From assembly GCA_964345045.1 (NCBI GenBank), contig CAYFPM010000001.1, positions 375,632 through 439,631 on the forward strand: a DNA stretch of 64,000 bases, given 5' to 3'. The position numbers and the translations under genes are program-made. Below, piece after piece: positions 3,049 through 57,610 of the stretch (positions are counted from its first letter, which is position 1; each line of letters starts with the position of its first letter). Origin of the DNA: an uncultured Gammaproteobacteria bacterium (GTDB lineage Bacteria > Patescibacteriota > Patescibacteriia > Magasanikbacterales > UBA922). Below the pieces are notes generated by a model. That model was not told the origin of the DNA. It saw only the letters and a list, made by a program, of their open reading frames with translations, and searched no databases.

Positions 3049-3103
3049 ATTAGTTGATTTAATGATTTAAAGTTTTTTTGCTTTATTGTTTTCTTGATTT
3101 CAT

Positions 3104-3175
3104 GTCACCCTTCGGGTGATCCCCGCCTGCCATGGTCTGAAGCCCAAGCGACTGGCGGGCAGGAGCCGAAGGCTG
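3104..3175. repeat. GC-rich hairpin element (UUCG-tetraloop hairpin plus second GC stem)
   Basis: gtcacccttcgggtgatc (stem CACCC/GGGTG with TTCG loop) is identical to an 18-mer at 24163. It is followed by ccgcctgcc...tggcgggcagg. The motif gactggcgggca also occurs at ~14200. Confidence 0.5.
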
Positions 3176-3206
3176 GCTTTAAAGCTTTTATGTTTTTTTG
3201 CTCTCG

Positions 3207-3224
3207 TGCTATAATGTAGCTACT
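3207..3224 (+). promoter_or_regulatory. extended -10 promoter (TGcTATAAT) abutting a start codon, possibly leaderless
   Basis: gtgctataat at 3207-3216; ATG at 3225 is 9 nt downstream, so the transcript may be leaderless. Confidence 0.3.
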
Positions 3225-5237
3225 ATGACCGCCCCGCAACTAAAACCAACCCATTCTTCCGAAGAAGACAAAGAAAATTTGTGCTTGTTTGCGCAGACCG
3301 ATTTTCGCAATCAGATGCGTCGTTTTGGTATAAAAACAGACGATCGACGTCGTCATATGTATGTAGTGGGCAAAACCGGTATGGGCAAGACCACCATGAT
3401 GGAAAACATGGTACTTCATGATATTTATAATGGACATGGAGTGGGAATTGTAGATCCTCATGGAGACTTTGCCGAAAAAATAATCAATTATATTCCACCA
3501 CACAGAATCAACGATGTGGTTTATTTCAATCCGGCCGACACCAGTTTCCCCATAGGATTTAATATTTTGGAAGTAAAAAATGATGAACAAAAACACTTGG
3601 TAGCTTCTGGACTTATGGCTACTTTCAAAAAGATTTGGCCGGATGTATGGAGTTCTAGAATGGAATACATCTTGAACAACACTCTTTTGGCACTTTTGGA
3701 CTATCCTGGTTCTACCTTGCTCGGGATAAATAGATTATTGGCTGACAAAGCCTACAGAAAAAAAGTTATTAGCAAATTGAAGGATCCGGTAGTAAAAGCT
3801 TTTTGGCAAAATGAATTTGCCAGCTATAACGACAGATATGCCCAAGAAGCTGTAGCTCCGATCCAAAACAAGATTGGTCAGTTTTTGTCTGCCAGTGTGA
3901 TTAGAAATATGGTAGCTCAGGTAAAATCAACTATAAACATCCGAGAAATTATGGATGGCCAAAAGATATTTGTAATGAATCTGTCCAAAGGTAGAATTGG
4001 AGAAGACAACAGTAGACTGCTTGGTGGTATGCTTATTACCGAAATCCAATTGGCTGCTATGGAAAGAGTAGACACTCCCGAACACGAAAGAAAAGATTTC
4101 TTTTTGTATGTAGACGAATTTCAAAACTTTGCTACCCCCAGTTTTGCCAATATTTTGTCCGAGGCTCGTAAATATCGCCTTAGTTTGATTATGGCGCACC
4201 AGTATATAAAACAGCTAGACGAAATAGTGGGGGATGCTGTGTTTGGGAACGTTGGTACTATTGTAACTTTTCGGGTGGGTGGTCCAGATGCCGAAGTTTT
4301 GGTAAAAGAATTTACTCCAACTTTTATGGAAGAAGATATTGTGAATCTAGAAAAGTTTCATATATTTTTGAAATTAATGATAAACGGAGTAGCTTCTCTA
4401 CCTTTTAGCGCTATGACTATGCCGCCAATTGGCTCGCCAACCGGTAGTGCCGAAAAAGTAATAAAAGTTTCTAGAGAAAGATATGCCAAAGACAAAAGCA
4501 GTATAGAAGACAAAATCACCAGGTGGAGTGGCATGGAGCCGGTAGAATCACAAGAAGAAGAATTTGATGTGGATACTACAAAAAGACCGCCCAAGAAAAA
4601 AGAATCCTCCAAAACAATATCGCTTAGTGATTTGAAACCAAAAGAAAATAATCCTCCAAAGGATAGTTCCAAAAAAACAAGTTCACAAAAACCAAAAGAA
4701 GAACGATCCTCTGCTTCTGATCGTCCAAAAGGAGACAAAGGGGCAGGAAATTCGTCTGCCGGCTTGGGACAAGAAAATAAAAATGGCCAAGCTGTAAGTG
4801 GTGGTGAGAGCCATGATTCGGAAAAGAAAAAAAGAAAACGAAAAAGAAAGAAAAAGAGTGAAGGCCAAAATAATGCTTCTTCTACAAATAATAATGGTAG
4901 TCAACCAAAACCAGAAGACACCCAAAAATCTCTATCCGAATTGCAATCGAGTAAACAAATAGAAAAGACTAATAAACAAGAAGAAGACTCGCCAGAAAAA
5001 CAAGAAACAACCAATACAGAGTATAAAATTAAAGATAGTAAACAACAGGTAGCAGACGTTGATGAAAAAATAGAATATAAGCAAGCTGTAGTAGAGAACA
5101 AAGATAATCAAGAAGAAAAAAACACAGAACCGATGATAAGTCTGGCAGACTTGTCGGAGAAAAAAGAAGACAAACCTACAGAAAACTCTGCCCCAAAAAA
5201 ATTAGACGAAAATGATATAATTAGTTTTGATTCTTAA
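3225..5237 (+). CDS. AAA-like ATPase of the VirD4/TraG/TraD coupling-protein type (DUF87/TraM-recognition-like) with long K/E/S-rich disordered C-terminal tail
   Basis: Walker A VVGKTGMGKTT; Walker B-like FLYVDEFQNF; C-terminal ~230 aa low-complexity lysine/glutamate/serine-rich region. The ORF track starts at TTG 3198; ATG 3225 is preferred. Confidence 0.55.
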   Translation: MTAPQLKPTHSSEEDKENLCLFAQTDFRNQMRRFGIKTDDRRRHMYVVGKTGMGKTTMMENMVLHDIYNGHGVGIVDPHGDFAEKIINYIPPHRINDVVYFNPADTSFPIGFNILEVKNDEQKHLVASGLMATFKKIWPDVWSSRMEYILNNTLLALLDYPGSTLLGINRLLADKAYRKKVISKLKDPVVKAFWQNEFASYNDRYAQEAVAPIQNKIGQFLSASVIRNMVAQVKSTINIREIMDGQKIFVMNLSKGRIGEDNSRLLGGMLITEIQLAAMERVDTPEHERKDFFLYVDEFQNFATPSFANILSEARKYRLSLIMAHQYIKQLDEIVGDAVFGNVGTIVTFRVGGPDAEVLVKEFTPTFMEEDIVNLEKFHIFLKLMINGVASLPFSAMTMPPIGSPTGSAEKVIKVSRERYAKDKSSIEDKITRWSGMEPVESQEEEFDVDTTKRPPKKKESSKTISLSDLKPKENNPPKDSSKKTSSQKPKEERSSASDRPKGDKGAGNSSAGLGQENKNGQAVSGGESHDSEKKKRKRKRKKKSEGQNNASSTNNNGSQPKPEDTQKSLSELQSSKQIEKTNKQEEDSPEKQETTNTEYKIKDSKQQVADVDEKIEYKQAVVENKDNQEEKNTEPMISLADLSEKKEDKPTENSAPKKLDENDIISFDS

Positions 5238-5662: not shown

Positions 5663-5759
5663 AAGTATTTAGCTATATTAAACAGATTTGTTGGGTATAT
5701 CTTGACAAGTCTGTTTTTTTTTGATAAGTTCAAATATCGCATAGATGTGGAGGTCAAAT

Positions 5760-6260
5760 ATGCGTATCGTAGACATGTTTAGTTTTCTGTTGTTCCTTTT
5801 GGGGCTTTGTAAAAAAAGTCCGGTACCTCTGTGGTACTTGGAGATCAAGCTCAAAAGACAAAAATTCACTCCTAAGACCCCCGAATGGGCAAAGTGGACG
5901 CCCCTTGAGCCCTGCTGGCATGAGACTGGTAGAGAAAAACGGGGAGCCATAAGTTTCCGAATCAGGGGGGACTTGATTCTGAGGAACGATGGTACGGCCG
6001 TGATCTTGAGCAGAGTTTCTAGTGCTAGGACACTAGAGCTGTGTGCTCTTCACACCGGGCAAGGAGTCCCGAGTGGAGAAGAAGCCAGACTGCGTGACCT
6101 AGCCAAAGATATTTTTTCTCGAGAACTATCTGAAGTGACAATCTCACCAAATCTCACGGCAGCCGGGATCTTTCGATTTGTTCGAGAGGAAAATATGTTT
6201 TCTGCCTATGTAAATGGCATTGCTTGTGAATATCGCCAAGCACGCCAATACGGTCAGTAG
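5760..6260 (+). CDS. GC-rich hypothetical secreted/lipoprotein-like protein (foreign-looking cassette gene)
   Basis: GGAGG 6 nt upstream of ATG 5760; TTGACA-17-TAAGTT promoter at 5702-5730; N-terminal hydrophobic segment ending LLGLC; local GC about 50% vs ~33% in flanks. Confidence 0.4.
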   Translation: MRIVDMFSFLLFLLGLCKKSPVPLWYLEIKLKRQKFTPKTPEWAKWTPLEPCWHETGREKRGAISFRIRGDLILRNDGTAVILSRVSSARTLELCALHTGQGVPSGEEARLRDLAKDIFSRELSEVTISPNLTAAGIFRFVREENMFSAYVNGIACEYRQARQYGQ

Positions 6261-6369
6261 AGTTCCTTGTGTGATCTCTCCACAAAAAAATCACCCAAAA
6301 TCAAAAGAACACCATTATATGGTGTCTTTTTGTATTTGGAATGGAGTGGCTCGGATCCTACTCGAGCCG

Positions 6370-6582
6370 CTAGTGGAGGGGATCGCTGGGGTTGGGACCA
6401 GCTTGATTCTCTCCGAGATGGAGACAACGTAGCTTCCAAGTATTGAAGGCATCTTCTTGCTCCGTCATCGGAGCGGCTCTTCCAGTTCGGAAGTATCCTT
6501 TGCCCTGGAGAGCCTTTCTTATGGTAGCAGAATCGGTTCGAGGAGGTGCCTGCCTTTTTTGGGTAATGGTAGCTTGAGCCAT
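6370..6582 (-). CDS. GC-rich hypothetical small protein (70 aa), convergent with the 5760 gene
   Basis: AAGGAG 9 nt upstream of ATG (minus strand). Minus-strand TTGACA-17-TATAAG promoter lies at ~6625-6660. Confidence 0.3.
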   Translation of the reverse strand: MAQATITQKRQAPPRTDSATIRKALQGKGYFRTGRAAPMTEQEDAFNTWKLRCLHLGENQAGPNPSDPLH

Positions 6583-6709
6583 CCGTGTCTTCTCCTTCTG
6601 GAATGTCTGTGACCATCTGGTCAATTTCCTTATACCAAAAATTATATCACTTGTCAAGAGTATCGGCAAGCTTGAAAGAAAAAATTGCCTATGTTAAGGT
6701 TTAGGCATT

Positions 6710-13594: not shown

Positions 13595-14173
13595 TCAACC
13601 TCTATATAAAGATATTCCCCAAATCAAAAATGGAATCCACATTGATATTAAGAGAAACTGTTTGATGAGAAAATATTCAGTTTCGCGGCGTTTCAAACAT
13701 AAATAAATAATTGCAATAAATGGTAATAATATACCTAGCTCAATTAACAAATTTCGATATAGATAATAATTTTGCCAATCGAGCTTACCTGCGCTTGGCA
13801 ATACTCCAAAGGGAAGGGTTAATTTGCCACTATAAAATGGCCATAGATACGCTTTTGGGAAAACTCCTACCAGTAAATCCAGAAAAAGGTGTGAGAAAGA
13901 AGCAGTAAAAAGTTGAAAGCTTTTATTTAATAAATTTCTGTTTTTTTTGTATTTAAGGAATAATACACTTAGAATTGGCAAAATTAGTACAAATCCAATT
14001 GAGTGAGAATGTTTAAGTATTGTCTGAGAACCTAATATCCACAATGCAATATAATTTATATCAGGGGAAAATGCTAAAAACATTAGCCATACTGACCATT
14101 TCCAAGAATTGCTCTTTTTAGAAAGCCGCGAAACAGATAGACCTATAATGCTATGGCCGATAAATGATGACAT
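13595..14173 (-). CDS. membrane-bound metal-dependent hydrolase (DUF457/YdjM-like)
   Basis: IGHSIIG and HSHSIGF motifs with multiple TM helices. The track ORF extends to 14254 through a GC-rich leader; the MSSFIGHS start is preferred. Confidence 0.55.
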   Translation of the reverse strand: MSSFIGHSIIGLSVSRLSKKSNSWKWSVWLMFLAFSPDINYIALWILGSQTILKHSHSIGFVLILPILSVLFLKYKKNRNLLNKSFQLFTASFSHLFLDLLVGVFPKAYLWPFYSGKLTLPFGVLPSAGKLDWQNYYLYRNLLIELGILLPFIAIIYLCLKRRETEYFLIKQFLLISMWIPFLIWGISLYRG

Positions 14174-14448
14174 AATTTTTTGATAAGCACGGCGGACGAC
14201 TGGCGGGCACCGCCGCCCATTGATTGCAATGGAGCGAAGCGACATTGCGGTCAACGTTCGCGTGTATCAGAAGTGCCGCCCCTCATCATCGCACAAAACT
14301 TTGATTTATCACAGACTCTGTTGAATGCCCCAGGCTTTGGTTTCAGCTAGCGGCATTTGGGAGAGGGGAAAAGAAGTACCTTTAAAATCAATAAACAAAT
14401 TTCTTTTTCCCGAACCTGCTATACGCTGTTAGTCGATGTTGGGTTGAT

Positions 14449-15107: not shown

Positions 15108-15932
15108 TTGATATGTATTATGAAATCTCTAAATGATATTGTAACCCGAGAAATGGAATTAGGCAATTATAGTCAAAAAACAATCAAAACCTATCTTGGG
15201 ATATACCAAGACCTATACAAAAATTTGGGCAAACCCCCAAGAGAAGCAAGTATGGATGAACTAAAAGATTATATCCATCAAAAAACAAAGAAAAATTTAT
15301 CTTCACAAACTATAGCTTTGTATGCCAATGCCATAAATTTTTTGTATATCTCGGTATATAAGAAAAAATCATACGAAAAATTTAAAATGCCTAAAAAGAC
15401 GAAGAAATTACCAGTAGTTTTGAGTAAAAAAGAAATCGAAACAATTGCAGCTCAAACCAAAAATTCAAAACACAAGCTAATGATTTTGTTGGCCTATGCT
15501 GCCGGACTCAGGGTAAGTGAAGTTACCAATTTGCGTGCAAAAGATATAGAATGCGACGAAGCACTGCTTACAATTCGTCAGGGAAAAGGCAAAAAAGATC
15601 GAGTTACAGTATTAAGTAATAAATTAATTGAAGAATTAAGAAGTTTAACTATAAAAAAGAATTCAGATGATTATTTGTTTGAAAGTGAGAGAGGGGGTAA
15701 ACTTACAAATGCAACCCCGCAAAAAGTATTTCAAAAATGTTTGACTAGTGCGCAAATAAAAAAGTCGGCCACCTTTCATAGTCTGCGTCATAGTTTTGCT
15801 ACGCACTTACTAGAAAACGGTGTAGATGTTCGATATGTCCAAGAACTACTCGGTCATGCCAATATTCGTACTACTCAGATATATACCAAAGTAACCAACC
15901 CAGCCATAAAAAATATCCAAAGTCCCTTATGA
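15108..15932 (+). CDS. tyrosine site-specific recombinase (XerC/XerD-like integrase family)
   Basis: C-terminal HSLRHSFATHLLENGVDVRYVQELLGHANIRTTQIYTKV (R...HxxR...Y catalytic signature); N-terminal SAM-like core-binding domain; 4-nt overlap with mnmA. Confidence 0.8.
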   Translation: MICIMKSLNDIVTREMELGNYSQKTIKTYLGIYQDLYKNLGKPPREASMDELKDYIHQKTKKNLSSQTIALYANAINFLYISVYKKKSYEKFKMPKKTKKLPVVLSKKEIETIAAQTKNSKHKLMILLAYAAGLRVSEVTNLRAKDIECDEALLTIRQGKGKKDRVTVLSNKLIEELRSLTIKKNSDDYLFESERGGKLTNATPQKVFQKCLTSAQIKKSATFHSLRHSFATHLLENGVDVRYVQELLGHANIRTTQIYTKVTNPAIKNIQSPL

Positions 15933-24119: not shown

Positions 24120-24200
24120 CGACCTTGGTCGGGACTTTGCCTCTCGGCAAAGAGCAAGAAAGTCACCCTTCGGGTGATCACCCGAAGGGTGGCAAGAAAA
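24120..24200. repeat. stack of GC-rich tetraloop hairpins (repeat family shared with 3104)
   Basis: cccgaccttggtcggg; gtcacccttcgggtgatc (identical to 3104-3121) immediately followed by its complement cacccgaagggtgg. Confidence 0.5.
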
Positions 24201-24225
24201 CATTAAAGCATTAAAAAATTGTATT

Positions 24226-29689: not shown

Positions 29690-31120
29690 ATGGCAAACTC
29701 TATTACCAAAAATACCGCTTTTATGACTATGGCCTCGGTCGGCCAAAAAATAGTCGCTTTTGTATACTTTACACTTATTGCTAGAAATATCGGAGCAGAG
29801 GGAACTGGTAAGTATTTTTTCGCCTTGTCTTTTACTACTATTTTTGTAGTTTTTGTAGATCTTGGTCTTACCAATGTTTTGGTACGCGAAGCCGCTAGGA
29901 TGAAAGAAAAAATGCAGCAATATTTGTCTACTATTTTGTCGGTAAAATTATTTTTTGGGGTTATAACTTATATTGTGGCGGTTATAACCATAAATTTGCT
30001 TGGCTACCCGATAGAAACCAAACACTTGGTTTATCTCTCGGCAGTGACCATGTTGTTTGATTCTTTGCATTTGACTATTTATGGAGTTTTGCGGGCCATT
30101 GGAGATTTGAAATACGAAGCAATTGGTATTGTAAGTAGTCAATTAATTACGCTTATTTTGGGTAGTATATTCTTATATTTTGGTTACCCGCTTATTTTTC
30201 TTATTCTTGCTTTTACTATTCCTAGTTTCTTCAATGTTTTGTTTGCTGCTACAGTTCTAATAAGTAAATATAAAATAAGTCTAAAACCCAAGTTTGAAAA
30301 AGAAACTTTTTTGTTTATTTCCAAGATTGCCGTGCCTTTTGCCTTGGCCGCAGTTTTTGCGAGGGTCTATTCGTATATAGATTCAGTTTTACTTTCCAAA
30401 CTGGCAGGAGATGTGGCAGTCGGTTGGTACAGTATTGCTTACAAAATTACTTTTGCTTTTCAGTTTGTGCCGCTTGCTTTGGTGGCAGCTCTGTACCCAC
30501 GTTTTAGCGAATATTTCAAAAATAATAAAAGTAAGCTTTCCTTTGCTTTTGAACAAAGTTTAAAATATTTGTTGATAATAGCTTTTCCAATTGTATTTGG
30601 GATTTCCATACTAGCCAAGGATATTGTACTTACTCTTTATACAGAAGAATTTATAAACGCTATTTTGCCATTGCAAATTCTTTTGGCAGGTTTGATTTTT
30701 TCTTATGTTAGTTTTCCTATTGGAGCTTTTCTCAATGCTTGTGACAGACAAAAAACACAAACAACTATTGTAGGAATTGTTCTTAGTTTTAATGTAGTTT
30801 TGAATTTAATTTTGATACCCAAGTTTGGAGTAGTTGGAGCGGCCAGTGCTGCTGCTATTGGCAATGTGCTTTTGACAATTTTGGGGTATGCTGTAGCGCC
30901 AAGTATTAGCAAAATTAGACATAGTTTTATATTAAAAACTTTTATTCAACTTTTAGTTTCGGCTAGTGTAATGGGAGTATTTGTTTGGTATATCAATAAG
31001 TTATCTAATTTTATTTTGGCAATTTTGGTTGGAGCCGTGGTTTATCCGTTTATGTTATTTATAACTAGAGCTGTTACCAAAAGACAACTAAGAGAAGCTA
31101 TTTTGTTTGTAAAAAGATGA
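29690..31120 (+). CDS. polysaccharide/oligosaccharide flippase (Wzx-like, MOP superfamily)
   Basis: 476 aa with about 12-14 TM helices and a typical Wzx N-terminus (KNTAFMTMASVGQKIVAFVYFTLIAR). Confidence 0.7.
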   Translation: MANSITKNTAFMTMASVGQKIVAFVYFTLIARNIGAEGTGKYFFALSFTTIFVVFVDLGLTNVLVREAARMKEKMQQYLSTILSVKLFFGVITYIVAVITINLLGYPIETKHLVYLSAVTMLFDSLHLTIYGVLRAIGDLKYEAIGIVSSQLITLILGSIFLYFGYPLIFLILAFTIPSFFNVLFAATVLISKYKISLKPKFEKETFLFISKIAVPFALAAVFARVYSYIDSVLLSKLAGDVAVGWYSIAYKITFAFQFVPLALVAALYPRFSEYFKNNKSKLSFAFEQSLKYLLIIAFPIVFGISILAKDIVLTLYTEEFINAILPLQILLAGLIFSYVSFPIGAFLNACDRQKTQTTIVGIVLSFNVVLNLILIPKFGVVGAASAAAIGNVLLTILGYAVAPSISKIRHSFILKTFIQLLVSASVMGVFVWYINKLSNFILAILVGAVVYPFMLFITRAVTKRQLREAILFVKR

Positions 31121-31130
31121 AGTATCAATT

Positions 31131-31203
31131 ATCACTATTTTTTTGCTGCGGAATAAGGCTCACTTCGTTCTCGCAAACGTCCTCGCTGCAAAAATAGTGA
31201 TAA
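31131..31203. repeat. 72-bp GC-rich palindromic repeat element, copy 1
   Basis: atcactatttttttgctgcggaataaggctcacttcgttctcgcaaacgtcctcgctgcaaaaatagtgat; internally palindromic; about 95% identical to 32466-32539. Confidence 0.6.
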
Positions 31204-31277: not shown

Positions 31278-32435
31278 ATGAAAAAAGTTTTATTAGTTAC
31301 TTTGGAGCATCCTCCACAGATTGGGGGGATTGCGACTTATTGTCATGATTTGGCAGCGGCTCTGGGCAAAGAAAATGTTGTAGTTTTGGCTCCAGCTGGC
31401 AAAGACAAGTACGCCACGCAAGCAGAAAAATTAGCTTGGGACAAAGAACAACCTTACAAAATTGTACGTAAGCGAATGTTATTGCCAAAGTTTATTTGGC
31501 CTCGTTGGATTTTGTTAGGCTGGCAGCTTTGGCGTACAGCCAAAGAAGAAAATTGTCAGATTGTATTTGTACAACATGTCTTGCCAGTAGGTTATGCCGC
31601 TATTTTTACCAAAATTATTGGCAAAATTCCGTTTTTATTATTTTCTCATGGTACAGATTTGGTAGCTGGTACAGCCAACTGGTGGAAGAAAAAAATGGTA
31701 ACCATGGTTTCGGAACATTCCGAAGAAATTATTTTTAATAGCGAATCACTCAAGCGTCGTTTTTTGCGAGTCTTGTCACAGTTCGAAAGTAAATCTTTGG
31801 TACTTTATCCTTGTCCGGAGCCGGCTTTTTTGGAGCCACCAAACGAGGCAGATTTGTTGGCCTTGCGTGCACAGTATGCGCTAGAAGGTAAAAAAGTTTT
31901 GCTTTCTATTTCTAGATTAACCGATGGTAAGGGGTTCCCACACCTTATAAATATAATGCCCGAGGTTTTGAAAAAAAATCCGAACTTGGTTTGGTTTATC
32001 GTAGGAGATGGACCAAAAAAGAATGAAATTATAAAACATATTAGAGAAAATAATTTACAAAATATTGTTCGTTTTATTGGAGAAATTCCACATATCGCTT
32101 TGCATCAATATTATTATTTGGCAGATCTTTTTGTACTGTTAACTCATCCGGACGAAGGTAAAGAAGAAGGTTTGGGATTGGTATTTTTGGAGGCTTCGGC
32201 AGCGGGTTTGCCTATAGTGGCTGGCAAAAGTGGGGGAGTAGAAGAGGCAGTATTAGACAAACAAACCGGTTTGGTGGTGGACACTCACAATGGTACAGAA
32301 GTGGCGGAAGCAATCTTGGGGATGCTAGAAAACGAGGGGCAAGCCAAACAATTTGGAAATGCTGCTAAAAATAGAATTATTAATGATTTTAATTGGCCAA
32401 AACAAGTGGCAAAGCTAGGTCCTTGGTTAAAATAG
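31278..32435 (+). CDS. glycosyltransferase family 4 (GT-B, group 1)
   Basis: C-terminal EASAAGLPIVAGKSGGVEEAV...GLVVD (EX7E-type GT1 motif). Confidence 0.8.
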   Translation: MKKVLLVTLEHPPQIGGIATYCHDLAAALGKENVVVLAPAGKDKYATQAEKLAWDKEQPYKIVRKRMLLPKFIWPRWILLGWQLWRTAKEENCQIVFVQHVLPVGYAAIFTKIIGKIPFLLFSHGTDLVAGTANWWKKKMVTMVSEHSEEIIFNSESLKRRFLRVLSQFESKSLVLYPCPEPAFLEPPNEADLLALRAQYALEGKKVLLSISRLTDGKGFPHLINIMPEVLKKNPNLVWFIVGDGPKKNEIIKHIRENNLQNIVRFIGEIPHIALHQYYYLADLFVLLTHPDEGKEEGLGLVFLEASAAGLPIVAGKSGGVEEAVLDKQTGLVVDTHNGTEVAEAILGMLENEGQAKQFGNAAKNRIINDFNWPKQVAKLGPWLK

Positions 32436-32465
32436 CCTTATAATTTTGAATTACAGTAGTATCAG

Positions 32466-32539
32466 GAATCACTATTTTTTTGCTGCGGAATAAGGCTCGC
32501 TTCGCTCTCGCAAACGTCCTCGCTGCAAGAATAGTGATT
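32466..32539. repeat. 72-bp GC-rich palindromic repeat element, copy 2
   Basis: gaatcactatttttttgctgcggaataaggctcgcttcgctctcgcaaacgtcctcgctgcaagaatagtgattc; with copy 1 it lies on both sides of the GT4 gene. Confidence 0.6.
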
Positions 32540-32610: not shown

Positions 32611-33309
32611 ATGCACGACTTAATTAGTATAATTATTCCGGTTTACAATCACGAAGCAGAACTTCGACATGCTTTGGATTCTATTTTTTTGCAAACTTAC
32701 AAAAATATAGAAGTGATTGTGGTAAACGATGGATCGCAAAAACCCTTACAACTTACAACTTATAACTTACAACTGATTAATCAGGAAAATAAAGGTGCTC
32801 CGGCAGCTAGAAACAGAGGTCTAAGAGAGGCCAAAGGAGATTATGTAATATTTTGGGATGCCGATGTGGTGGCCGAGCCAGAAATGTTAGAAAAAATGCA
32901 TCATGTGCTAGAAATACATCCAGAAGCTAGTTATGTTTACAGTGATTTTTGTTTTGGCGACAAACTAATGAAAGCCCAAAAGTTTTCTGCCGAAGCTTTG
33001 CAAAAAAATAATTTTATTCATTCTACTTCTTTGATTAGAAAAGAGGCTATGGAAAAGATTGCTTGGGACGAAAGTTTAAAAAGATTTCAAGATTGGGATT
33101 TGTGGTTAACAATGCTCAAAAAAAGAAAAGAGGGGATTTATATTCCGGAAACCTTGTTTAAGGTAGTCCCCAGAAAAACCGGCATAAGTAGCTGGTTGCC
33201 GTCGTTTGCTTACAAAAAACCTTTTAGATTTTTGCCAGGCTTTGCAAAAAGAGTTAGAGAATATGAGGAAAAGAAGGAAATTGTGATGAAGAAACAAGGA
33301 CTTCTTTAG
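32611..33309 (+). CDS. glycosyltransferase family 2 (GT-A)
   Basis: SIIIPVYNHEAELRHALDSIFLQTY...VVNDGS, DxD-like WDADVV; contains a short acaactta-type tandem repeat at ~32745-32775. Confidence 0.8.
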   Translation: MHDLISIIIPVYNHEAELRHALDSIFLQTYKNIEVIVVNDGSQKPLQLTTYNLQLINQENKGAPAARNRGLREAKGDYVIFWDADVVAEPEMLEKMHHVLEIHPEASYVYSDFCFGDKLMKAQKFSAEALQKNNFIHSTSLIRKEAMEKIAWDESLKRFQDWDLWLTMLKKRKEGIYIPETLFKVVPRKTGISSWLPSFAYKKPFRFLPGFAKRVREYEEKKEIVMKKQGLL

Positions 33310-33383
33310 TAATTTGTAAACAGTAAATTGTAAATAGATATTTACTTATCGCAGACGCTTTCTCCAAGTAACTTGTTATGTAA

Positions 33384-33446
33384 GGGATCCTTCGGCTTTG
33401 CCTCAGGATGACTCGTGTAGTCATTCTGAGCGTTAGCGAAGAATCT
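33384..33446. repeat. dispersed GC-rich repeat element (intergenic copy)
   Basis: Blocks gggatccttcg, caggatgactc, gtcattctgagcg and gaagaatctc recur, circularly permuted, inside tatD at 47533-47614. Confidence 0.5.
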
Positions 33447-33451
33447 CTAAC

Positions 33452-34909
33452 CTATAAGATCTCTCTAACCTTATCTACCAACACATCTACAAAGCTGTGT
33501 TTTTCTGTAGAAATAGTAAAAGCGTATACAAAAAAGACAATCCCAAATAAATGAAAAATAAGAGGGGCGGTAATGTTCATAAGTAAAACAGCAAACAAGC
33601 TAGCTACAACTCCAAGTTCTATAAATTGACAATGTGGATCTTTTTTGTAAATTTTTATAAGTTTATAAATTAAATAAACCAAAACAGTTAATAAAATTGC
33701 CAAACCAATGATTCCCATTTCGGCTAATATTTCTAGATAACCCCAATCAAATTGTCGAGTAGTGATTTGTGAAAATCCACCATCTGGATTGGGGGCAAAG
33801 AAGGTAACGCTGCTGCCAAGCCCATGGCCATAAAAGGGATTTTGTTTTACTAATTCTATCGCTGGTGTAAGTAATGCCGATCTGGTATAAGCACTTAGCT
33901 CTGTGCTAGGACTAGCAATGCTTCCAAAACGATTACTAATTAGTGCCAATCCAAAAGAAGTAAAATTACTAGCAACTAAGTGAATAGAGAAAAATAAAAA
34001 TATGGTAATGCCAGCTAGACTAGCAGACACTTTGAACCATTTTTTGAAATTTTGTTTGTAAAGTAGAATTAAAAATCCAAAAGCTAATCCCAAAAAGTAA
34101 GTGCGAGAAAGATTTAGTACTAGAGTAAACAAAGCTAGTGTTGCTAGGGTGTAAAAAAGTTTATTATGTTTGTCTGTTTTCATTAGTTTGGCAGCCGCAC
34201 CCAACACAATTGGTACGAGTAGCAAGTGAATAGGCTCGACAATACGAAAAAATCCAGTGCCTGTGTTTGTTATTTTGCCAGCCAGGACATCGCGAATCCA
34301 TTTGTAGTAGGGATCATGAATTATTTCCCAGCCTATAGTAAACACAACAAAATTGTATAAGCCAAAAATAGCGGTGCCGATAACAAAGGCAATTAATAAG
34401 TTTTTGCAATAGTTTATTAGTTTTTTGTCCTCGAATAATTCTGTAGAAGGAAAGACAAGTAAAATATATAGGTAAGGAATAAAATCTTGTGTGGCTGCGA
34501 AAAAACCATTGTTAATAGCTCCTAGAATCCAAAATATACCGACAAAAGCAATTAAGCCAAAGATTGCTAATCTTTGGGTTTTGTTTAGGTGTTTGCTAAG
34601 TTTTTTTCTATTGATTATTTTATCGCCAAACCAGAGAGTTACAAATGTGACAAGGAATACACTACGGAGTGACAGGCCGTAGAGTTCTAGCAGTTGCCCA
34701 GATCCCCCGAGAAGTAGTTCTGTTATAACTATAGCAAAAGCCGTTTTTGGAGATCGGTAATAAGCATAGCCTAAAGTTATGACTAATAAGAAGGTGAGGA
34801 GGGATTGAAGGATTAAATGGTTTGCAGTGAAGTAGGAAAGAATGCGAAAAGAAAAAAATGTTAACAACAAGATGATTATTTGGCTTTGTTTGTTTGGTTT
34901 CATATACAA
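33452..34909 (-). CDS. O-antigen ligase/polymerase-like polytopic membrane protein (Wzy/WaaL family, tentative)
   Basis: 485 aa, more than 10 TM helices with a central periplasmic loop; sits in the glycosyltransferase/flippase neighbourhood. Confidence 0.45.
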   Translation of the reverse strand: MYMKPNKQSQIIILLLTFFSFRILSYFTANHLILQSLLTFLLVITLGYAYYRSPKTAFAIVITELLLGGSGQLLELYGLSLRSVFLVTFVTLWFGDKIINRKKLSKHLNKTQRLAIFGLIAFVGIFWILGAINNGFFAATQDFIPYLYILLVFPSTELFEDKKLINYCKNLLIAFVIGTAIFGLYNFVVFTIGWEIIHDPYYKWIRDVLAGKITNTGTGFFRIVEPIHLLLVPIVLGAAAKLMKTDKHNKLFYTLATLALFTLVLNLSRTYFLGLAFGFLILLYKQNFKKWFKVSASLAGITIFLFFSIHLVASNFTSFGLALISNRFGSIASPSTELSAYTRSALLTPAIELVKQNPFYGHGLGSSVTFFAPNPDGGFSQITTRQFDWGYLEILAEMGIIGLAILLTVLVYLIYKLIKIYKKDPHCQFIELGVVASLFAVLLMNITAPLIFHLFGIVFFVYAFTISTEKHSFVDVLVDKVREIL

Positions 34910-37147: not shown

Positions 37148-37663
37148 TTAGTCTTGTCTTTTTCTAACTCTTTCAATTTTTTCTTCTGGATCAACTTCGT
37201 AAACATCTTTGGCTCTGTCGATAAATAAAATACCGTTCAAATGATCAAGTTCGTGTTGGACTACTCTGGCAAAAAAGTTTTTGGCTTCGAAATCTAGATC
37301 ACTTCCATCAACTGCCATAGCCCGTACTCGCAAATGGCTGGCTCGCTTAACTTTGCCAAAAGTATGAGGGACAGACAAACAACCTTCCGAGTCTACATTT
37401 TTTTTGCGACTAAGAATCTCTATCTCCGGATTAACCAAAATCAGATCTTCTTTCAAAGAATTGTCAGCGTCTTTGCCAATTACACAAATGCGAATATTTT
37501 TGTCTACTTGTGGAGCAGCCAGACCAATGCCTTCGTAATGGTACATGGCTGGGATCATGTCTTCGCAAAATTTTTGCATTTCTGGGGTAAGCAATTCTTC
37601 TTTGGAGACAGTCTGTGATTCTTGGCGGAGAGATTCACGAGGTAAGGTAACTAGGGGTAACAT
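37148..37663 (-). CDS. def: peptide deformylase
   Basis: GIGLAAPQV, EGCLSVP, QHELDHLNG metal-binding motifs. Confidence 0.9.
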   Translation of the reverse strand: MLPLVTLPRESLRQESQTVSKEELLTPEMQKFCEDMIPAMYHYEGIGLAAPQVDKNIRICVIGKDADNSLKEDLILVNPEIEILSRKKNVDSEGCLSVPHTFGKVKRASHLRVRAMAVDGSDLDFEAKNFFARVVQHELDHLNGILFIDRAKDVYEVDPEEKIERVRKRQD

Positions 37664-37732
37664 ACTTTCTTTATCAATTTAAGATGAAATTGTCATTGCG
37701 GTCTAAAATCGCTCGCAATGACAGAGGATAGT

Positions 37733-39595
37733 TTAGGGATTTAAAATAGAAATTGGATTAGGATCTACTTTCCAGTTGGCAGGGATTATTTTATTCAATG
37801 CTATAAGCTGTTTTTGCCAATCTTTTTTTTCTAATTTTACAGTAATTACGTACCAAAATTGTTTTCTATAAAACTTTGGTTGCATTTCTACTGGAAGACT
37901 TATTTTAGCGGCAAAATTAGTTTTTGTCAACGCAGCTTTAAGATCTTTGGCCACTCTTTCGGCTTCATTTTTGGCAATTAATTTGTCTGGGTTACCATAA
38001 AAATATCTTACCAAGTAACTATATGGTGGATAAAACGTTTTCATGCGGTAGTTAAGCTCTGTACGATAAAATCTGTCTGGTTCAATTAAAGAACGAAAAA
38101 CAAGATGATTGGGGTTGTGAGTTTGGACAAAAATTTTGCTATTGTCTCGGGTTCGAAAATCAAACTCACCCAAAGTTTGCCACAAAGATTCGGCTGCTTG
38201 AAATTCTGGGATATTTAATTCCATGTCTGGATTGATCAAAATTACCAAATCAGTTTTGTCCCAACGTACATGCCGCTTGGCCATTTGGGTGCCAATTATG
38301 ATGCGTGGTTTTTTTGTATATGGCAAATCTTCTTCTATAGAACTATCAATTCTAATAATTTCGTAAGGGCAGTCTTTGCCTAACAAGTTTTTTACTCCTT
38401 CTTCGATAAATTCTGTACCTACACCACGTAATTCTACAAACTTGTCTTTGCAACGAGGGCAAGTAAAGTTGGCTGTAATTTTTATTCTACAGTAGTTGCA
38501 AGCAAACACATTTTGTTTGGCGTGGTAGATAAGTGGTTGGTTACATTTGTGACAAGTGTTTACAAAACTACAACTAGCACAATGAACAATAGAAGAAAAA
38601 CCAAGTTTATTAATATAAAGAAAAATATCACCGGTAGCATTTTTGATAGCTTCTTTTGCTTGGTCGGCCAAAACTCCATAATGCCCGGCTTTTTTTTCGT
38701 AGAGCATGTTTAATAGTTCTATTTTTTCGAGCGGGGGTAATTTGGTGGTGTTTGTGTCCAGACCGTTTTTGTGAATATCAAAATAAGCTTCTGAGCTAGG
38801 GGAGTGAGAAACAAAAACAGTTTCAAGATTAGCTTTTTTGGCAATTAACTTGGCCAAATCTTTGGTATGAAATCTGGGGTTTTGATCCCAGTGTTTGTGA
38901 TTATTATCTCCTTCAAAAAGAATAACAATTTGATCAAAATGAAAAATTGGCAAAAGCAAAGTACCTCTAGTACCTATAATAATATTTTTTTCTTCGTTTC
39001 TAATTTCGAGCCAGCGTTCAAATTTTTGTTTGGTGCTAAGGGCACTGTGCCAAACTACAGTTTCTTTTTGTTTCTCAATAGAAAGATTTTTTTTGACTTC
39101 ATCTATCAAATAAACTTCGGGGACTACAAAAATAGTTTTTTTGTTTTTTTCCAAAAGTGTTTGGATAACTTGTTTTTGTTCATCTGGGTTTTTTACAATA
39201 AAAAATTTTTCTTTCTTGTCACCCTTTGGGGGACTTTCTTGCCCTATTATTTGTTTAAATTCTACTTTTTTAAGTTTGTTTTTTTGCAAAGGCAATAAAC
39301 TCATCTGTGCCAAAGTGGGTAGGGAAGTGGCATAAATTTGAGAAAGTTCTTTTAGATAATTTATAAAATTTTCTGTTACAATTGGTTCTTGGTTTACTAT
39401 CGATGTTACATTTTTTAATTTTGGGTCATCTTCATTTTTCAATCGCAAAACCAAGCCAAAAATTTCTGACTTGCGAAAGGAGATTTTTACCAGTTGGCCA
39501 ACTTTTATTTTTTGGGCCAAATCTGCCTCTACATTGTAATCAAAAAAAGATATTGCACGGGGCAATCTCTTTAGTGGGATAACTTCGGCAATCAT
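37733..39595 (-). CDS. priA: primosomal protein N' (PriA)-like protein lacking Walker A and with degenerate Walker B
   Basis: PriA blocks: KKTIFVVPEVYLIDEV, VVWHSALS...ERW, IIIGTRGTLLLP, VFVSHSPSSEAY, Cys-rich Zn cluster CASCSF...CHKC...CNYC...CPRC. The GxGKT P-loop segment is absent and DEEH reads FEGD. Confidence 0.55.
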   Translation of the reverse strand: MIAEVIPLKRLPRAISFFDYNVEADLAQKIKVGQLVKISFRKSEIFGLVLRLKNEDDPKLKNVTSIVNQEPIVTENFINYLKELSQIYATSLPTLAQMSLLPLQKNKLKKVEFKQIIGQESPPKGDKKEKFFIVKNPDEQKQVIQTLLEKNKKTIFVVPEVYLIDEVKKNLSIEKQKETVVWHSALSTKQKFERWLEIRNEEKNIIIGTRGTLLLPIFHFDQIVILFEGDNNHKHWDQNPRFHTKDLAKLIAKKANLETVFVSHSPSSEAYFDIHKNGLDTNTTKLPPLEKIELLNMLYEKKAGHYGVLADQAKEAIKNATGDIFLYINKLGFSSIVHCASCSFVNTCHKCNQPLIYHAKQNVFACNYCRIKITANFTCPRCKDKFVELRGVGTEFIEEGVKNLLGKDCPYEIIRIDSSIEEDLPYTKKPRIIIGTQMAKRHVRWDKTDLVILINPDMELNIPEFQAAESLWQTLGEFDFRTRDNSKIFVQTHNPNHLVFRSLIEPDRFYRTELNYRMKTFYPPYSYLVRYFYGNPDKLIAKNEAERVAKDLKAALTKTNFAAKISLPVEMQPKFYRKQFWYVITVKLEKKDWQKQLIALNKIIPANWKVDPNPISILNP

Positions 39596-46672: not shown

Positions 46673-46828
46673 GTGTCTGACAAAAGCAAAAAAACAGGAA
46701 AAGTGAAAGAACAGTCAAAATGTGGACGTTGCCAAGGTACGGGAATAGATCCTATTCCTCTTTTACCGCCAGGAGCAAAAAAGAAAGAGTCGTGCATTCG
46801 ATGCCATGGTACCGGAAAGAAAAAATGA
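46673..46828 (+). CDS. mini zinc-finger protein with two DnaJ-type CxxCxGxG motifs (51 aa)
   Basis: Manual translation VSDKSKKTGKVKEQSKCGRCQGTGIDPIPLLPPGAKKKESCIRCHGTGKKK; GTG start with AAAGGGG upstream; absent from the ORF track. Confidence 0.3.
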   Translation: MSDKSKKTGKVKEQSKCGRCQGTGIDPIPLLPPGAKKKESCIRCHGTGKKK

Positions 46829-46967
46829 GATATGATTTTCAATTGGTGGGCATTTCTCAAACGGCACCTCCATTCAAAATAAGAATACACTCGACAAGAG
46901 TGTTTTTTGGTTCTATACTTTCAACTATAGATTTCACCCCGACACTCACTGCGTTCGGTCGGAGCAG

Positions 46968-47034
46968 GCAGATTAAAAAAGATTACGCAGATTTAAATTC
47001 AAAAATCTGCGTAATCTTAAATAATCTGCGCAAT
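46968..47034. promoter_or_regulatory. cluster of GATTACGCAGATTT motifs (1 direct, 2 inverted)
   Basis: gattacgcagattt (46981), aaatctgcgtaatc (47004), taatctgcgcaatc (47021); ends 9 nt upstream of the tatD start. Confidence 0.4.
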
Positions 47035-47042
47035 CAACTTAT

Positions 47043-47975
47043 ATGATGATAGATACTCACTGCCATGTGCAGTTCAAAGCTTTTAAAGATGATTACGAAG
47101 AAGTAATAAAAAAGTGCCTCGACAAAGGCATGATTTTGAATTTGGTGGGTACACAAAAAGACACTAGCCAGTGGGGCGTAGAATTGGCAGAACAGTATGA
47201 CAATGTTTACGCTAGTATAGGCACACATCCATTACACCTGCATCCTACTCATGTAGACGAAGAAGAAACACATTTTATGTCTCGCGAAGAAAGTTTTGAT
47301 TGGGAACATTACGAAAAATTAGCCAAATCAAAAAAAGTAATCGGAGTGGGGGAGTGTGGGCTAGAACTTTTTCATGTACCAAAAGACAAAACCAAAGAAG
47401 AAGTTTTGGCCAAACAAAAAATAGTATTTTTAGATCATGTGCGGTTTGCTAGCCAACACAACTTACCATTAGTAGTGCACTGCCGTGATGCCCACGACGA
47501 GATGATTGAATTGTTACAAAATTATTTGACCAGTCATTCTGAGCGAAGCGCAGCGGAGTCGAAGAATCTCGGTGAATTACCAAAGGGATCCTTCGTTAGC
47601 ACTCAAGATGACTCTGGAAAATTTAGAGGAACAATCCACTGCTTCACCTCCAACTGGGATCATGCTCAAAAATATTTGGATATGGGATTTAATCTAGGTT
47701 TTACCGGAGTAGTGACTTTTCCACCAAAAAAGACCGATCCCCAGCCACAGCTGGATCTAGAAGAAGTAATTCAAAATATACCGCTAGATAAAATAGTGGT
47801 AGAAACAGACTCTCCATATCTAGCCCCACAGGCCTATAGAGGCAAGCGATCCGAACCCTGGATGGTAGAAGAAGTAATCAAAAAATTCGCTAAAGTAAGA
47901 GGAAAAAGTCAAAAAGAAATGGAAGACATTATAGCCGAAAATACCCTTCGATTATTTACACACATACAAGCTTAA
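47043..47975 (+). CDS. tatD: TatD-family metal-dependent hydrolase (DNase)
   Basis: IDTHCHV, GVGECGLE, HCRDAHDE, HCFTSN, ETDSPYL motifs; an extra ~30-aa segment (TSHSERSAAESKNLGELPKGSFVSTQDDSGKF) precedes HCF and is encoded by a dispersed repeat. Confidence 0.85.
   Translation: MMIDTHCHVQFKAFKDDYEEVIKKCLDKGMILNLVGTQKDTSQWGVELAEQYDNVYASIGTHPLHLHPTHVDEEETHFMSREESFDWEHYEKLAKSKKVIGVGECGLELFHVPKDKTKEEVLAKQKIVFLDHVRFASQHNLPLVVHCRDAHDEMIELLQNYLTSHSERSAAESKNLGELPKGSFVSTQDDSGKFRGTIHCFTSNWDHAQKYLDMGFNLGFTGVVTFPPKKTDPQPQLDLEEVIQNIPLDKIVVETDSPYLAPQAYRGKRSEPWMVEEVIKKFAKVRGKSQKEMEDIIAENTLRLFTHIQA
47533..47614. repeat. dispersed GC-rich repeat element inserted in-frame within tatD
   Basis: gtcattctgagcg, gaagaatctc, gggatccttcg and caagatgactc blocks shared with 33384-33446; GC-rich relative to the rest of tatD. 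Confidence 0.45.
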
Positions 47976-55849: not shown

Positions 55850-57610
55850 ATGAAATATCACACCAAACTCACATTCAAGATATATCTACAACATGCTTTG
55901 CGCTACAAGCTAATGTTTTTTGTAATACTTGCTAGTGCTGTTTTTGCTTCTGTTTCAGATTTGGTAGCTCCATTTTTGTATAAAGAATTTTTTGATATCC
56001 TTACAGATTCAAGCATTACAGAGGCAAAAGCTGAACTGATAAGAATTCTACTTTTTATTCTGGGGATTCACATGCTTACTACTTTGTTTTGGCGAATTAG
56101 TTTTTTTACCAACAACAGATTTCAACCAAAGGTGATGGCAGATTTGGCCAACACTTGTTTTGCATATTTGCACAAGCATTCTTTTTCATTTTTCAACAAT
56201 AATTTTGTAGGTTCTCTGGTCAAAAGAGTAAACCGTTTTTATAGAGCTTTTGAAGCTTTGTCAGATCGGTTAATGTTTGACCTCTTGAAACTAGCTATCG
56301 AAGTAACAGTAATTACTGCTGTTTTGTTTACAAAAAGTGTAATCCTCGGTATTTCAATTTTACTTTGGACGATACTTTTTGTAGCTTTGAATTATTTTTA
56401 TAGTGTTTTCAAATTAAAATACGATATAGAGCGTAGCGAACAAGACACCAAAGTAACTGGTGTTTTGGCAGATTCTGTAACCAATCAATCAAACATAAAA
56501 CTTTTTGCAGGGTACGATAGAGAAAGAAAAAGATTTGGTTCTGTAACAGAAGAGCTGCGTAGATTAAGAACCTTAACTTGGGATTTGGGGCAAATTGCCG
56601 AGTCTGTGCAGATTTTGCTTATGATTGCTCTTGAAGTGATCTTAATGTACTTTGCCATAGGTTTGTGGGAACAAGGCGTTTTGAGTATTGGAGACTTTGT
56701 GTTATTGCAGGCTTACCTAATGTCTTTGTTTAACCATATTTGGAGCTTTGGTCGTATTATAAGAGACTTTTACGAGCAGCTTGCCGATGCCGAAGAAATG
56801 ACTGTAATACTCGACACGCCACACGAAGTAAAGGACAAAAAAAGAGCTGGTTTGCTAGATGTAAAAAAAGCCAAAATAAAGTTTGATAATGTGGATTTTT
56901 ATTATCATAAAACTCGCAAGGTTATTGATAAATTAAAACTTATTATAAAACCAGGAGAGAAAGTGGCTTTGGTAGGACCTTCGGGAGCTGGTAAATCTAC
57001 TATAATAAAACTTTTACTTAGAATACACGATGTTTCTGGTGGTAAAATTTTTATTGATGAACAAAATATTGCCAATGTGAGTCAAGATAGTTTGCACCAA
57101 GCCATTAGTTTAGTTCCTCAAGATCCGATTTTATTTCATAGAACATTGCTCGAAAATATTAGGTATGCCAAACCAAATGCTACAGAAGAAGAAGTTATAA
57201 AAGCAGCAGAATTGGCTCATTGTCACGAATTTATCAAGGATTTCCCAGAAGGTTACAACACTTATGTTGGAGAAAGAGGGGTAAAATTGTCTGGTGGAGA
57301 AAGACAGAGAGTAGCTATTGCTAGAGCAATTTTGAGCAATAGCCCAATTTTAATTTTGGACGAAGCTACATCTAGTCTTGATTCAGAATCAGAAAAATTG
57401 ATTCAAGATGCACTGGACCAACTAATGAAGAAAAAAACAGTAATCGTTGTGGCTCATAGATTGTCTACTATTATGAAAATGGATAGAATTCTTGTAGTAG
57501 AAGGAGGTAAAATAGTAGAACAAGGTTCTCACAAAGAACTGTTAAAGAAGAAAAAAGGCATCTATAGTCGTTTGTGGAAATACCAAGCCGGTGGATTTAC
57601 AAAGACTTAA
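55850..57610 (+). CDS. ABC transporter, fused permease/ATP-binding exporter (MsbA-like type I)
   Basis: 6-TM domain then GPSGAGKST, LSGGERQRVAIARA, ILILDEATSSLD; GGAAGGAGGG SD; two GC hairpins (ccccacattctggtgggg, ccacccaacccgggtgggtgg) in the leader. Confidence 0.9.
   Translation: MKYHTKLTFKIYLQHALRYKLMFFVILASAVFASVSDLVAPFLYKEFFDILTDSSITEAKAELIRILLFILGIHMLTTLFWRISFFTNNRFQPKVMADLANTCFAYLHKHSFSFFNNNFVGSLVKRVNRFYRAFEALSDRLMFDLLKLAIEVTVITAVLFTKSVILGISILLWTILFVALNYFYSVFKLKYDIERSEQDTKVTGVLADSVTNQSNIKLFAGYDRERKRFGSVTEELRRLRTLTWDLGQIAESVQILLMIALEVILMYFAIGLWEQGVLSIGDFVLLQAYLMSLFNHIWSFGRIIRDFYEQLADAEEMTVILDTPHEVKDKKRAGLLDVKKAKIKFDNVDFYYHKTRKVIDKLKLIIKPGEKVALVGPSGAGKSTIIKLLLRIHDVSGGKIFIDEQNIANVSQDSLHQAISLVPQDPILFHRTLLENIRYAKPNATEEEVIKAAELAHCHEFIKDFPEGYNTYVGERGVKLSGGERQRVAIARAILSNSPILILDEATSSLDSESEKLIQDALDQLMKKKTVIVVAHRLSTIMKMDRILVVEGGKIVEQGSHKELLKKKKGIYSRLWKYQAGGFTKT

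Follow-up and report, generated by a model that had tools for sequence, protein, structure and literature searches.

A probable palindromic dimer of the REP type within the tatD reading frame of a Magasanikbacteria-like bacterium, from a hairpin family present in more than ten phyla

Palindromic repeats that sit in-frame inside protein-coding genes are a known phenomenon. The Rickettsia palindromic elements (RPE), reportedly described by Ogata et al. in Science in 2000, are said to lie in-frame in essential genes of a small genome, where they are translated and tolerated in surface segments of the proteins; RPE-1 reportedly measures 100-150 bp and is confined to Rickettsia. Here we analyze a 64,000-nt stretch of DNA (the window; 36.6% GC) encoding a TatD-family hydrolase whose best-named relatives belong to Candidatus Magasanikbacteria. 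A segment of 82 bp within this tatD gene (47533-47614) has a counterpart in an intergenic spacer (33384-33447). We conclude that the tatD segment is probably a palindromic dimer of the repetitive extragenic palindromic (REP) type, gained in the recent ancestry of the gene and carried in-frame as a tolerated passenger.

Judged from its sequence features, the closest described class of repeats is that of the CGTC/TGTC-tagged REPs (Di Nocera, De Gregorio & Rocco 2013, BMC Genomics 14:522; PMC3733652). That survey describes four families with a perfect stem of 8-9 bp, a loop of 4-5 nt and a CGTC tag (also TGTC or CCTC). It reports CGTC repeats from five phyla, among which candidate-phyla-radiation bacteria do not figure, and equates RPE-4 and RPE-6 of Rickettsia with CGTC-4 and CGTC-1 (PMC3733652). 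In the REPIN/RAYT system, GTAG-tagged REP doublets are mobilized by a single-copy Y1 transposase (Bertels & Rainey 2011; PMC3116915). Our searches of the literature found neither the core sequence of the unit described below in a relevant context nor a link between Patescibacteria and intragenic palindromes, and the RepRanger survey does not cover this repeat family.

The tatD gene (47043-47975, + strand) encodes a protein of 310 aa that matches PF01026 over its full length (E=1.3e-67), and an alignment of this protein (P0001) with 119 orthologues showed that the invariant catalytic columns (H6, H8, E104, H146, H199 and D256) are all retained. Most orthologues comprise 280-285 aa and have an 11-residue loop (e.g. 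LLQSLNRPIRG) between the helix following HCRDAH and the GxxHC strand. The corresponding loop of the window TatD has 40 residues, 29 more than the common loop and 25 more than that of its nearest orthologue. The nearest orthologues, P0002 (75-80% identity) and P0003 (71-78%), have loops of 15 and 11 residues, and the unit model introduced below found no trace of a repeat unit in the DNA of their loci (L204 and L205; 12-14 kb). Similarly, a split HMMER alignment against the PDB placed only five residues of the T. maritima structure 1j6o opposite residues 161-193 of the query. As the closest TatD orthologues lack the segment, alignment identifies it as an insertion relative to both orthologues and solved structures. 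The repeat occupies codons 164-191, in frame and stop-free, and the insert has a GC content of 50% compared to 38.8% in the remaining gene. The original prediction, which was made from the window sequence alone and assumed about 30 additional residues with an intact frame, is corrected in number to 29 or 25, depending on the reference loop. The same TatD recurs on five contigs, which come from at least three samples, and is therefore not an assembly artefact. Of 80 TatD loci obtained from metagenome contigs, 78 held distant homologues, at about 30-40% identity, and gave no information.

We also used an AlphaFold2 model of the window TatD, which has a mean predicted local distance difference test score (pLDDT) of 90.8. 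The score drops to 62 and 51 over residues 171-190, between the helix 151-175 and the strand 196-199, and the insert is the sole low-confidence part of an otherwise confident TIM-barrel model. In TIM barrels, the loops leading from helix to strand lie on the face opposite the catalytic face. According to the model, the insert would thus be located in the alpha-5/beta-6 loop on the non-catalytic face and be largely disordered.

Both loci are composed of units of 25-38 nt with the pattern (T/A)GTC / ATTCT / GA / GCGNAGC / GA / AGAAT / C, that is, an unpaired GTC tag, a variable 5-bp box pairing inside the unit, a tandem GA/AG mismatch and an apex formed by the mini-hairpin GCGNAGC or GCGNNAGC. 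There are nine stacked stem positions (ATTCTGAGC / GCGAAGAAT), of which positions 6-7 are the G.A and A.G mismatches; most boxes begin with AT (ATTCT, ATCCT, ATGCT, ATTCC, ATTGC) and some with AC. In tatD, a unit, a 14-nt spacer and an inverted unit follow each other with the GTC tags pointing outward. The left unit (47533-47570, + strand; GTC/ATTCT/GAGCG-AAGCGCAGCGGAGT-CGA/AGAAT/CTC) encodes SHSERSAAESKNL and belongs to a long-loop subtype with extra NAGCG pentamers, which also occurs in other phyla (L017, L055 and L060). It is separated by the spacer (47571-47584; GGTGAATTACCAAA, excluding the CTC and GGG tails) from the right unit (47585-47614, - strand; GAGTC/ATCTT/GAGTG-CTAA-CGA/AGGAT/CCC), which encodes GSFVSTQDDS. 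The right unit is partly decayed, with an apex of GTG for GCG and a CTAA loop, and no longer folds alone. Measured from core to core (47533-47567 and 47588-47612), the gap between the units is 20 nt; the range across phyla, measured likewise, is 10-111 nt.

The intergenic locus has the opposite arrangement, an inverted unit (33384-33414, - strand; GAGTC/ATCCT/GAGGC-AAA-GCCGA/AGGAT/CCC) followed by a 5-nt linker, GTGTA (33415-33419), and a further unit (33420-33447, + strand; GTC/ATTCT/GAGCG-TTAG-CGA/AGAAT/CTC), so that the GTC tags face each other across the linker. The latter unit is near-canonical, with a loop of 4 nt where GCGNNAGC would have 5. This dimer sits between two convergent genes, encoding GT2 (32611-33309, + strand) and Wzy_C (33452-34909, - strand), at the 3' end of both. 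It belongs to the same genome-specific subfamily as the tatD dimer and has its tags inward, the rarer form. The ends of the dimers are inverted (GTCAT...ATGAC), and in all four units of the window the base before GTC is A (AGTC), a genome-specific deviation. A 3-nt TAA is present on both sides of the spacer copy, which may be due to chance in a genome of 37% GC; no clear target duplication was seen in the flanks of the tatD copy.

An exact word search of the window found GTCATTCTGAGCG identical at 33420 and 47533, GGGATCCTTCG at 33384 and 47585, and GAAGAATCTC at 33438 and 47561, while the two copies of a fourth block, CARGATGACTC (33404 and 47604), are one base apart (CAAGATGACTC versus CAGGATGACTC). 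This confirmed, with exact or near-exact matches, the initial claim of four blocks common to tatD and the spacer. With 1-2 mismatches tolerated, the chance expectation for the 11- and 13-mer blocks is 0.4-1.1 per window, and the 10-mer GAAGAATCTC with one mismatch was found 10 times versus 4.2 expected; all four blocks cluster nowhere in the window but at these two places, within 82 and 64 nt respectively, which is far beyond chance. The order of the blocks had been described as swapped. The opposite arrangement is correct, but no single element has been permuted: each locus is an inverted dimer, and the order is swapped because the blocks GGGATCCTTCG ... CARGATGACTC are the reverse complement of GTCATYYTGAG ... 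CGAAGRATCCC, an A-type unit, and the two dimers are oppositely arranged. A covariance model of 29 positions, built from 36 diverse units of other phyla and run with filters off, returned exactly four significant units in the 64 kb (33-39 bits), located at 47531-47570 (+ strand, 35.3 bits, E=1e-6), 47585-47614 (- strand, 32.6 bits, E=5.5e-6), 33384-33414 (- strand, 34.1 bits, E=2.4e-6) and 33418-33447 (+ strand, 39.2 bits, E=1.2e-7). Nothing in the rest of the window scored above 10 bits.

To follow the unit beyond the window, GTDB contigs (one genome per species) and IMG/VR viral contigs were scanned for the exact pattern GTCATTCTGAGCG-N2-20-CGAAGAATC. The pattern occurred at at least 120 loci in GTDB genomes of more than ten phyla, and at at least 120 loci in viral contigs. 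Hosts among the matches listed include Acidobacteriota, Chloroflexota, Nitrospirota, Bacteroidota (with cultured Pedobacter, Flavobacterium and Mucilaginibacter), Clostridia and Verrucomicrobiota, as well as Planctomycetes, Omnitrophota, Gracilibacteria, Saccharimonadales, Desulfovibrio, Helicobacter and others. Most of these matches are 25-mers with a 3-nt loop (AAG 44, CAG 29, TAG 16, GAG 13), and 4-nt loops are CCAG, AGAG, TTAG, ATAG, AAAG and CTAG; read with their flanking bases, the loops give GCGNAGC. Of 141 units among the matches listed, 114 have T, 17 C, 5 A and 5 G directly ahead of the invariant GTC. About one fifth of the units in genome loci lie inside long open reading frames (ORFs), a rough count that is inflated by spurious ORFs in GC-rich genomes. 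The presence of the same 25-nt unit in at least 120 unrelated genomes does not support the alternative offered by the original prediction, a recently expanded loop. In a Fibrobacter sp. (L042 7195-7343), two single units were seen inside an apparent lipoprotein gene, one in the signal-peptide region (MKNSFPS-VILSVAKNL-AMLSIAAVMFVACGG) and one in a Ser-rich linker. Among the viral loci L211-L330, the unit lies within 1.5 kb of one shared family of ORFs of about 360 aa in 21 of the 120 loci listed; by its sequence this family looks like a phage structural protein, and the viral contigs with the unit may stem from related phages or prophage flanks.

We then asked the family itself whether the units form hairpins. 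For this purpose, units were chosen by their constant parts only, without any pairing filter. In 33 of 47 units with a non-searched box, all five Watson-Crick pairs inside the unit are kept; mean box pairing was 4.3 compared to 3.2 for shuffled partners, and none of 2000 shuffles reached the observed value. Seven different box pairs occur (ATCCT/AGGAT, ACCCT/AGGGT, ATTCC/GGAAT, ATGCT/AGCAT, ATGTT/AACAT, ATTTC/GAAAT and GTTCT/AGAAC). The hairpin of the unit is thus supported by covariation across the aligned family. An inverted partner is present for 51 of 141 units, forming 14 homodimers and at least 24 heterodimers in which the second unit is self-complementary but has another box. Since this second box pairs with itself and is mismatched to the first, it is the small hairpin that is conserved and not a long hairpin between units. 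Across phyla, the tags point outward in 30 dimers and inward in 3, and 10 have both units in the same orientation.

The TatD loop has received inserts repeatedly. A loop of more than 30 residues at the same site is present in 24 of the 119 orthologues, and at least 12 carry the peptide signature of this repeat type (VIA/VIP or xHxER on the left; RND, QND, QDD or GMT on the right). At the DNA level, canonical dimers were identified in the tatD loops of three of these. In P0089 the boxes are ATTCT and ATCCT, and 2 loop residues plus 1 nt precede the junction; in P0115 the boxes are ATTGC, with 1 residue ahead of the junction, and in P0091 they are ATTCC and ATCCC, with 3 residues. In the window tatD, the junction comes after 5 residues plus 1 nt. 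The long palindrome found at this loop in P0120 (-60.8 kcal/mol) is unrelated. A neighbor-joining tree calculated with the loop masked places P0001 inside a group of short-loop relatives and well away from the P0089 clade. The differing junctions and sequence variants therefore argue for repeated, independent gains, and several such gains at one loop are the economical reading of the aligned sequences; within sub-clades (P0087/P0100/P0115 and P0091/P0118), the insert is clearly inherited. Further copies exist, both in this genome and abundantly in relatives. In the contig encoding P0091 (L209), the unit model detected six dimers (at least 12 units) in 17.8 kb, of which four are located in spacers, mostly of the ATP-synthase operon, one in tatD and one in-frame inside ThiI (1045-1148 in the gene 761-2050), giving CHSDNEGGISVRLSRDEWDRDPSSLAAASSLGMT. 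L206 contains a tatD dimer and an intergenic dimer, and L210 a single unit.

Other types of insert were noticed as well. The related TatD proteins P0065 and P0068 share a 10-12-residue peptide, EKSPDGSL(V/A)A, at two different positions, as it follows LPND in the former and HCRD in the latter; back-translation suggests that a small hairpin, AAGTCCCC-TGAC-GGGGACTT, may encode it. The loops of P0002, P0004, P0006, P0007 and P0023 have short duplications or AT-rich palindrome-like peptides (KSEVRSQKSEVR, KSEFLNLKSEIN, KSEISNQKSANPITNYRLQITDIKSKIN), which suggests that the loop peptides of the closest relatives are earlier, different insertions or their footprints.

Taken together, the segment in tatD is most likely a passenger. 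We propose that a recent ancestor of this Magasanikbacteria-like lineage acquired the dimer in the stretch of tatD coding for the alpha-5/beta-6 loop. The dimer would have survived as a copy in an open frame, with a length that is a multiple of three, in a loop on the non-catalytic face, and would now be translated as a largely disordered loop extension of 29 residues. The decay of the right arm is more in keeping with a neutral passenger than with an RNA or protein module under selection. Spread may have proceeded via a hairpin intermediate of single-stranded DNA and an enzyme that acts in trans and is encoded away from the copies. Repeated insertion at one loop would mainly reflect tolerance, with purifying selection removing insertions elsewhere.

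Several observations weigh against this interpretation. Single units fold no better than shuffled sequences under nearest-neighbor DNA parameters, and the whole tatD dimer is not significantly structured (z=-1.0 for the sense strand, and -2.1); as the folding energies are not significant, the hairpin claim rests on the covariation of the family and not on the tatD copy. With only two dimers in 64 kb, the genome is repeat-poor. Mobility is deduced from distribution, and the recurrence at one loop could reflect targeting instead of tolerance. No transposase was found in a Pfam scan of window ORFs of at least 90 aa not already identified by synteny; the scan left out the ATP-synthase genes downstream of tatD, which are assigned by synteny, and a 108-aa ORF (46720-47046). 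The sole recombinase among the scanned ORFs is XerC/D-like (15108-15932). Likewise, no transposase was found among the neighbors of the 120 cross-phylum loci listed, which have no ORF family in common except for generic ABC, SDR and kinase genes; the recurrent neighbors at viral loci look like structural phage genes and probably reflect related phages. Finally, there is no empty site close enough to fix the insertion boundaries, or a target duplication, with nucleotide precision. A precise junction was sought by excising 47538-47614, which leaves CAGTCATTGGAAAA, with 14 nt identical to P0003 (L205); however, the frames differ, and further indels of +14 and -4 nt are needed to reconcile the lengths, so that this candidate was rejected as proof.

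In its strongest form, targeting would make the alpha-5/beta-6 loop a true, actively addressed insertion hot-spot, for example via hairpin-into-hairpin or sequence-directed integration, and the unit the single-stranded DNA substrate of a widespread, possibly phage-borne enzyme. At least five distinct junctions in one 8-residue loop, unrelated palindromes at the same site, at least 120 viral contigs with the unit, and the lack of a known transposase nearby are compatible with this scenario. If true, it would explain the letter-for-letter conservation from Acidobacteriota to candidate-phyla-radiation bacteria and phages; for now we regard it as a speculative possibility and unlikely.

We consider it quite unlikely that a functional RNA hairpin, serving as 3'-end stabilizer, RNase target or factor-independent terminator, is under selection at both loci, in which case the tatD copy would regulate tatD or the downstream ATP-synthase operon. 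Such a role would suit the spacer dimer, which lies between convergent genes and folds strongly as RNA (-33.3 kcal/mol, z=-5.8; as DNA -14.5 kcal/mol, z=-3.9), and also the dimers that fill ATP-synthase operon spacers in relatives; REPs are moreover reported to be located mostly downstream of genes and to be transcribed (PMC3733652). RNA folding, which had been suggested as a check, thus gave a strong fold for the spacer dimer, but not for the tatD copy, whose sense strand is not significantly structured (z=-1.0) and whose right unit is decayed. At the spacer locus (scan of 33200-33600), no T-run, terminator-like or promoter site was found. Rfam gave no match at gathering thresholds in the whole window and nothing meaningful at E values of up to 10 at the spacer copy; the window contains no tRNA or tmRNA. 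For single units, the two orientations with respect to the upstream ORF number 32/23 in genomes and 30/30 in viral contigs; this absence of a bias, together with the missing T-run, argues against a strand-specific RNA role. Moreover, the nearest relatives do without the repeat.

An ancient insertion that is orthologous across the TatD proteins of Patescibacteria, was passed on vertically, was lost repeatedly and had its copies homogenized to the resident repeat family appears improbable. It would account for the 24 of 119 orthologues with long inserts in the same loop, for a clade with inserts in 19 of about 26 members, and for the insert types that the sisters P0087/P0100/P0115 and P0091/P0118 have in common. 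Against this stand the nested position of P0001 among short-loop relatives, at least five junction offsets or frames (1, 2, 3, 3+1 nt and 5+1 nt residues after 'LL'), unrelated palindromes at the same site such as that of P0120, and the same peptide types in distant branches (e.g. P0059 versus P0064 and P0109). Local duplication or slippage inside tatD, with a coincidental or gene-conversion-derived resemblance to the spacer, is hardly credible: the loop is indel-prone, with short duplications in P0006 (KSEVRSQKSEVR) and P0002 (KSE...KSE) and NAGCG pentamer slippage in the left unit, but the idea is effectively refuted by the match of both tatD units to the cross-phylum covariance model (E about 1e-6) and by the identical 13+9-nt pattern at at least 240 unrelated loci, and the segment has 50% GC in a gene of 39% GC.

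The window contains further small palindromes. A hairpin, GTCATTGCGGTCTAAAATCGCTCGCAATGAC, is located at 37690-37722 between def (37148-37663, - strand) and priA (37733-39595, - strand). It has the GTCAT...ATGAC termini of the repeat without the inner halves, folds at -15.8 kcal/mol (z=-3.9) and obtains no score from the unit model; it possibly represents a collapsed dimer. Three more copies of the mini-hairpin core GAGCGNAGCGA are present in the window, at 14232 (+), 32497 (-) and 56429 (+; 56429-56439), with 0.01 expected. At 14220-14250 the core is enclosed in TTGCAATG-GAGCGAAGCGA-CATTGCGGTC, a hairpin with GTC on its 3' side that overlaps the start of a YdjM-like ORF (13595-14254, - strand). 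Two 81-nt direct repeats (31121-31201 and 32458-32538; 93% identical) each follow directly after the stop codon of an envelope gene, a Polysacc_synt flippase (29690-31120) and a GT1 glycosyltransferase (31278-32435). Both repeats are palindromic, with TCACTATTTTT/AAAAATAGTGA closing the palindrome, and copy 2 has the core GAGCGAAGCGA on the minus strand. GC-rich palindromes, TCACCCTTCGGGTGA, are common to the intergenic regions 3096-3124 and 24154-24215 (a 43-nt inverted pair, 81% complementary) and look like a further small family of repeats. A TrwB/TraG-like type IV coupling protein (3198-5237) is followed by a markedly GC-rich stretch (5865-6508, within 5745-6616) whose ORFs have no Pfam match; the coupling protein, this stretch and the XerC/D-like recombinase may be the remnant of an integrated element.

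These findings go beyond the textbook case in the candidate-phyla-radiation host, in the repeated colonization of one TatD loop and in a unit that is nearly the same in different phyla and in phage contigs. Protein-coding palindromic repeats, best known from Rickettsia, are thereby extended to candidate-phyla-radiation bacteria, which also have reduced genomes, and the TatD loop provides a natural experiment on where a TIM barrel can accommodate insertions. A nearly identical hairpin unit in more than ten phyla and in phage contigs, without a known mobilizing enzyme, poses a question for mobile-DNA biology. For annotation, it is a warning that such units yield spurious ORFs and odd low-complexity segments (HSERSEES, VILSEAKNL, PQNDK, GMT).

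How does the repeat compare with the known systems? The original prediction had proposed a MITE-like (miniature inverted-repeat transposable element) mobile repeat that TatD tolerates. This proposal is supported, with the refinement that the element is better read as a REP-type hairpin dimer than as a MITE with terminal inverted repeats and a target duplication; its ends are inverted, but no parent insertion sequence is known. With REPIN/RAYT it has in common that two inverted hairpin units and a spacer form the repeat entity and that populations exist within genomes. The tag, however, is GTC instead of GTAG, and no RAYT/Y1 transposase was found in the scans of the 64-kb window or beside the 120 cross-phylum copies listed. 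The sequence d(GCGNAGC)/d(GCGNNAGC) is the consensus of an extraordinarily stable DNA mini-hairpin, GCGNNAGC being the longer form (PMC13037366). The apices of the units agree with this consensus, and all four bases occur at N; the mini-hairpin is a physicochemical motif and not a genetic element, and its stability is not captured by nearest-neighbor folding. The likeness to RPE is one of behavior, as the repeat is in-frame, stop-free, absent from orthologues and placed in a surface segment with the catalytic residues intact; RPE-1 differs in its reported size of 100-150 bp and its restriction to Rickettsia.

The comparison with the CGTC/TGTC-tagged REPs is the closest. Here, too, a short self-complementary unit is present in many copies (4 in the window, at least 12 in L209 and at least 240 loci elsewhere). 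An unpaired (C/T)GTC tag at one end and a short tail are common to both, and the stem here also mostly starts with A-T and T-A; the tag is found across phyla, and the window units have AGTC. Both occur mostly as inverted dimers with the tags outward, heterodimers being common and the opposite arrangement rare, and both are spread over several phyla, have in-frame copies inside genes and lack a known associated transposase; for the present repeat, the dimers and the lack of an adjacent transposase refer to the loci listed and the scanned window ORFs. Unlike in the described families, the stem is broken here by the tandem GA/AG mismatch, and the apex is a 3-4 nt GNA/GNNA within GCGNAGC/GCGNNAGC in place of the 4-5 nt loop, with long loops occurring as well. 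Because of this difference in the loop we provisionally call it a new family, although it may yet be identical with one of the four described. In their peptides the two are of the same flavor: the CGTC/TGTC REPs give VIPAKAGI...IPAFAGMT, and the units described here give VILSEAKNL, HSERSEES...PQNDK and GMT.

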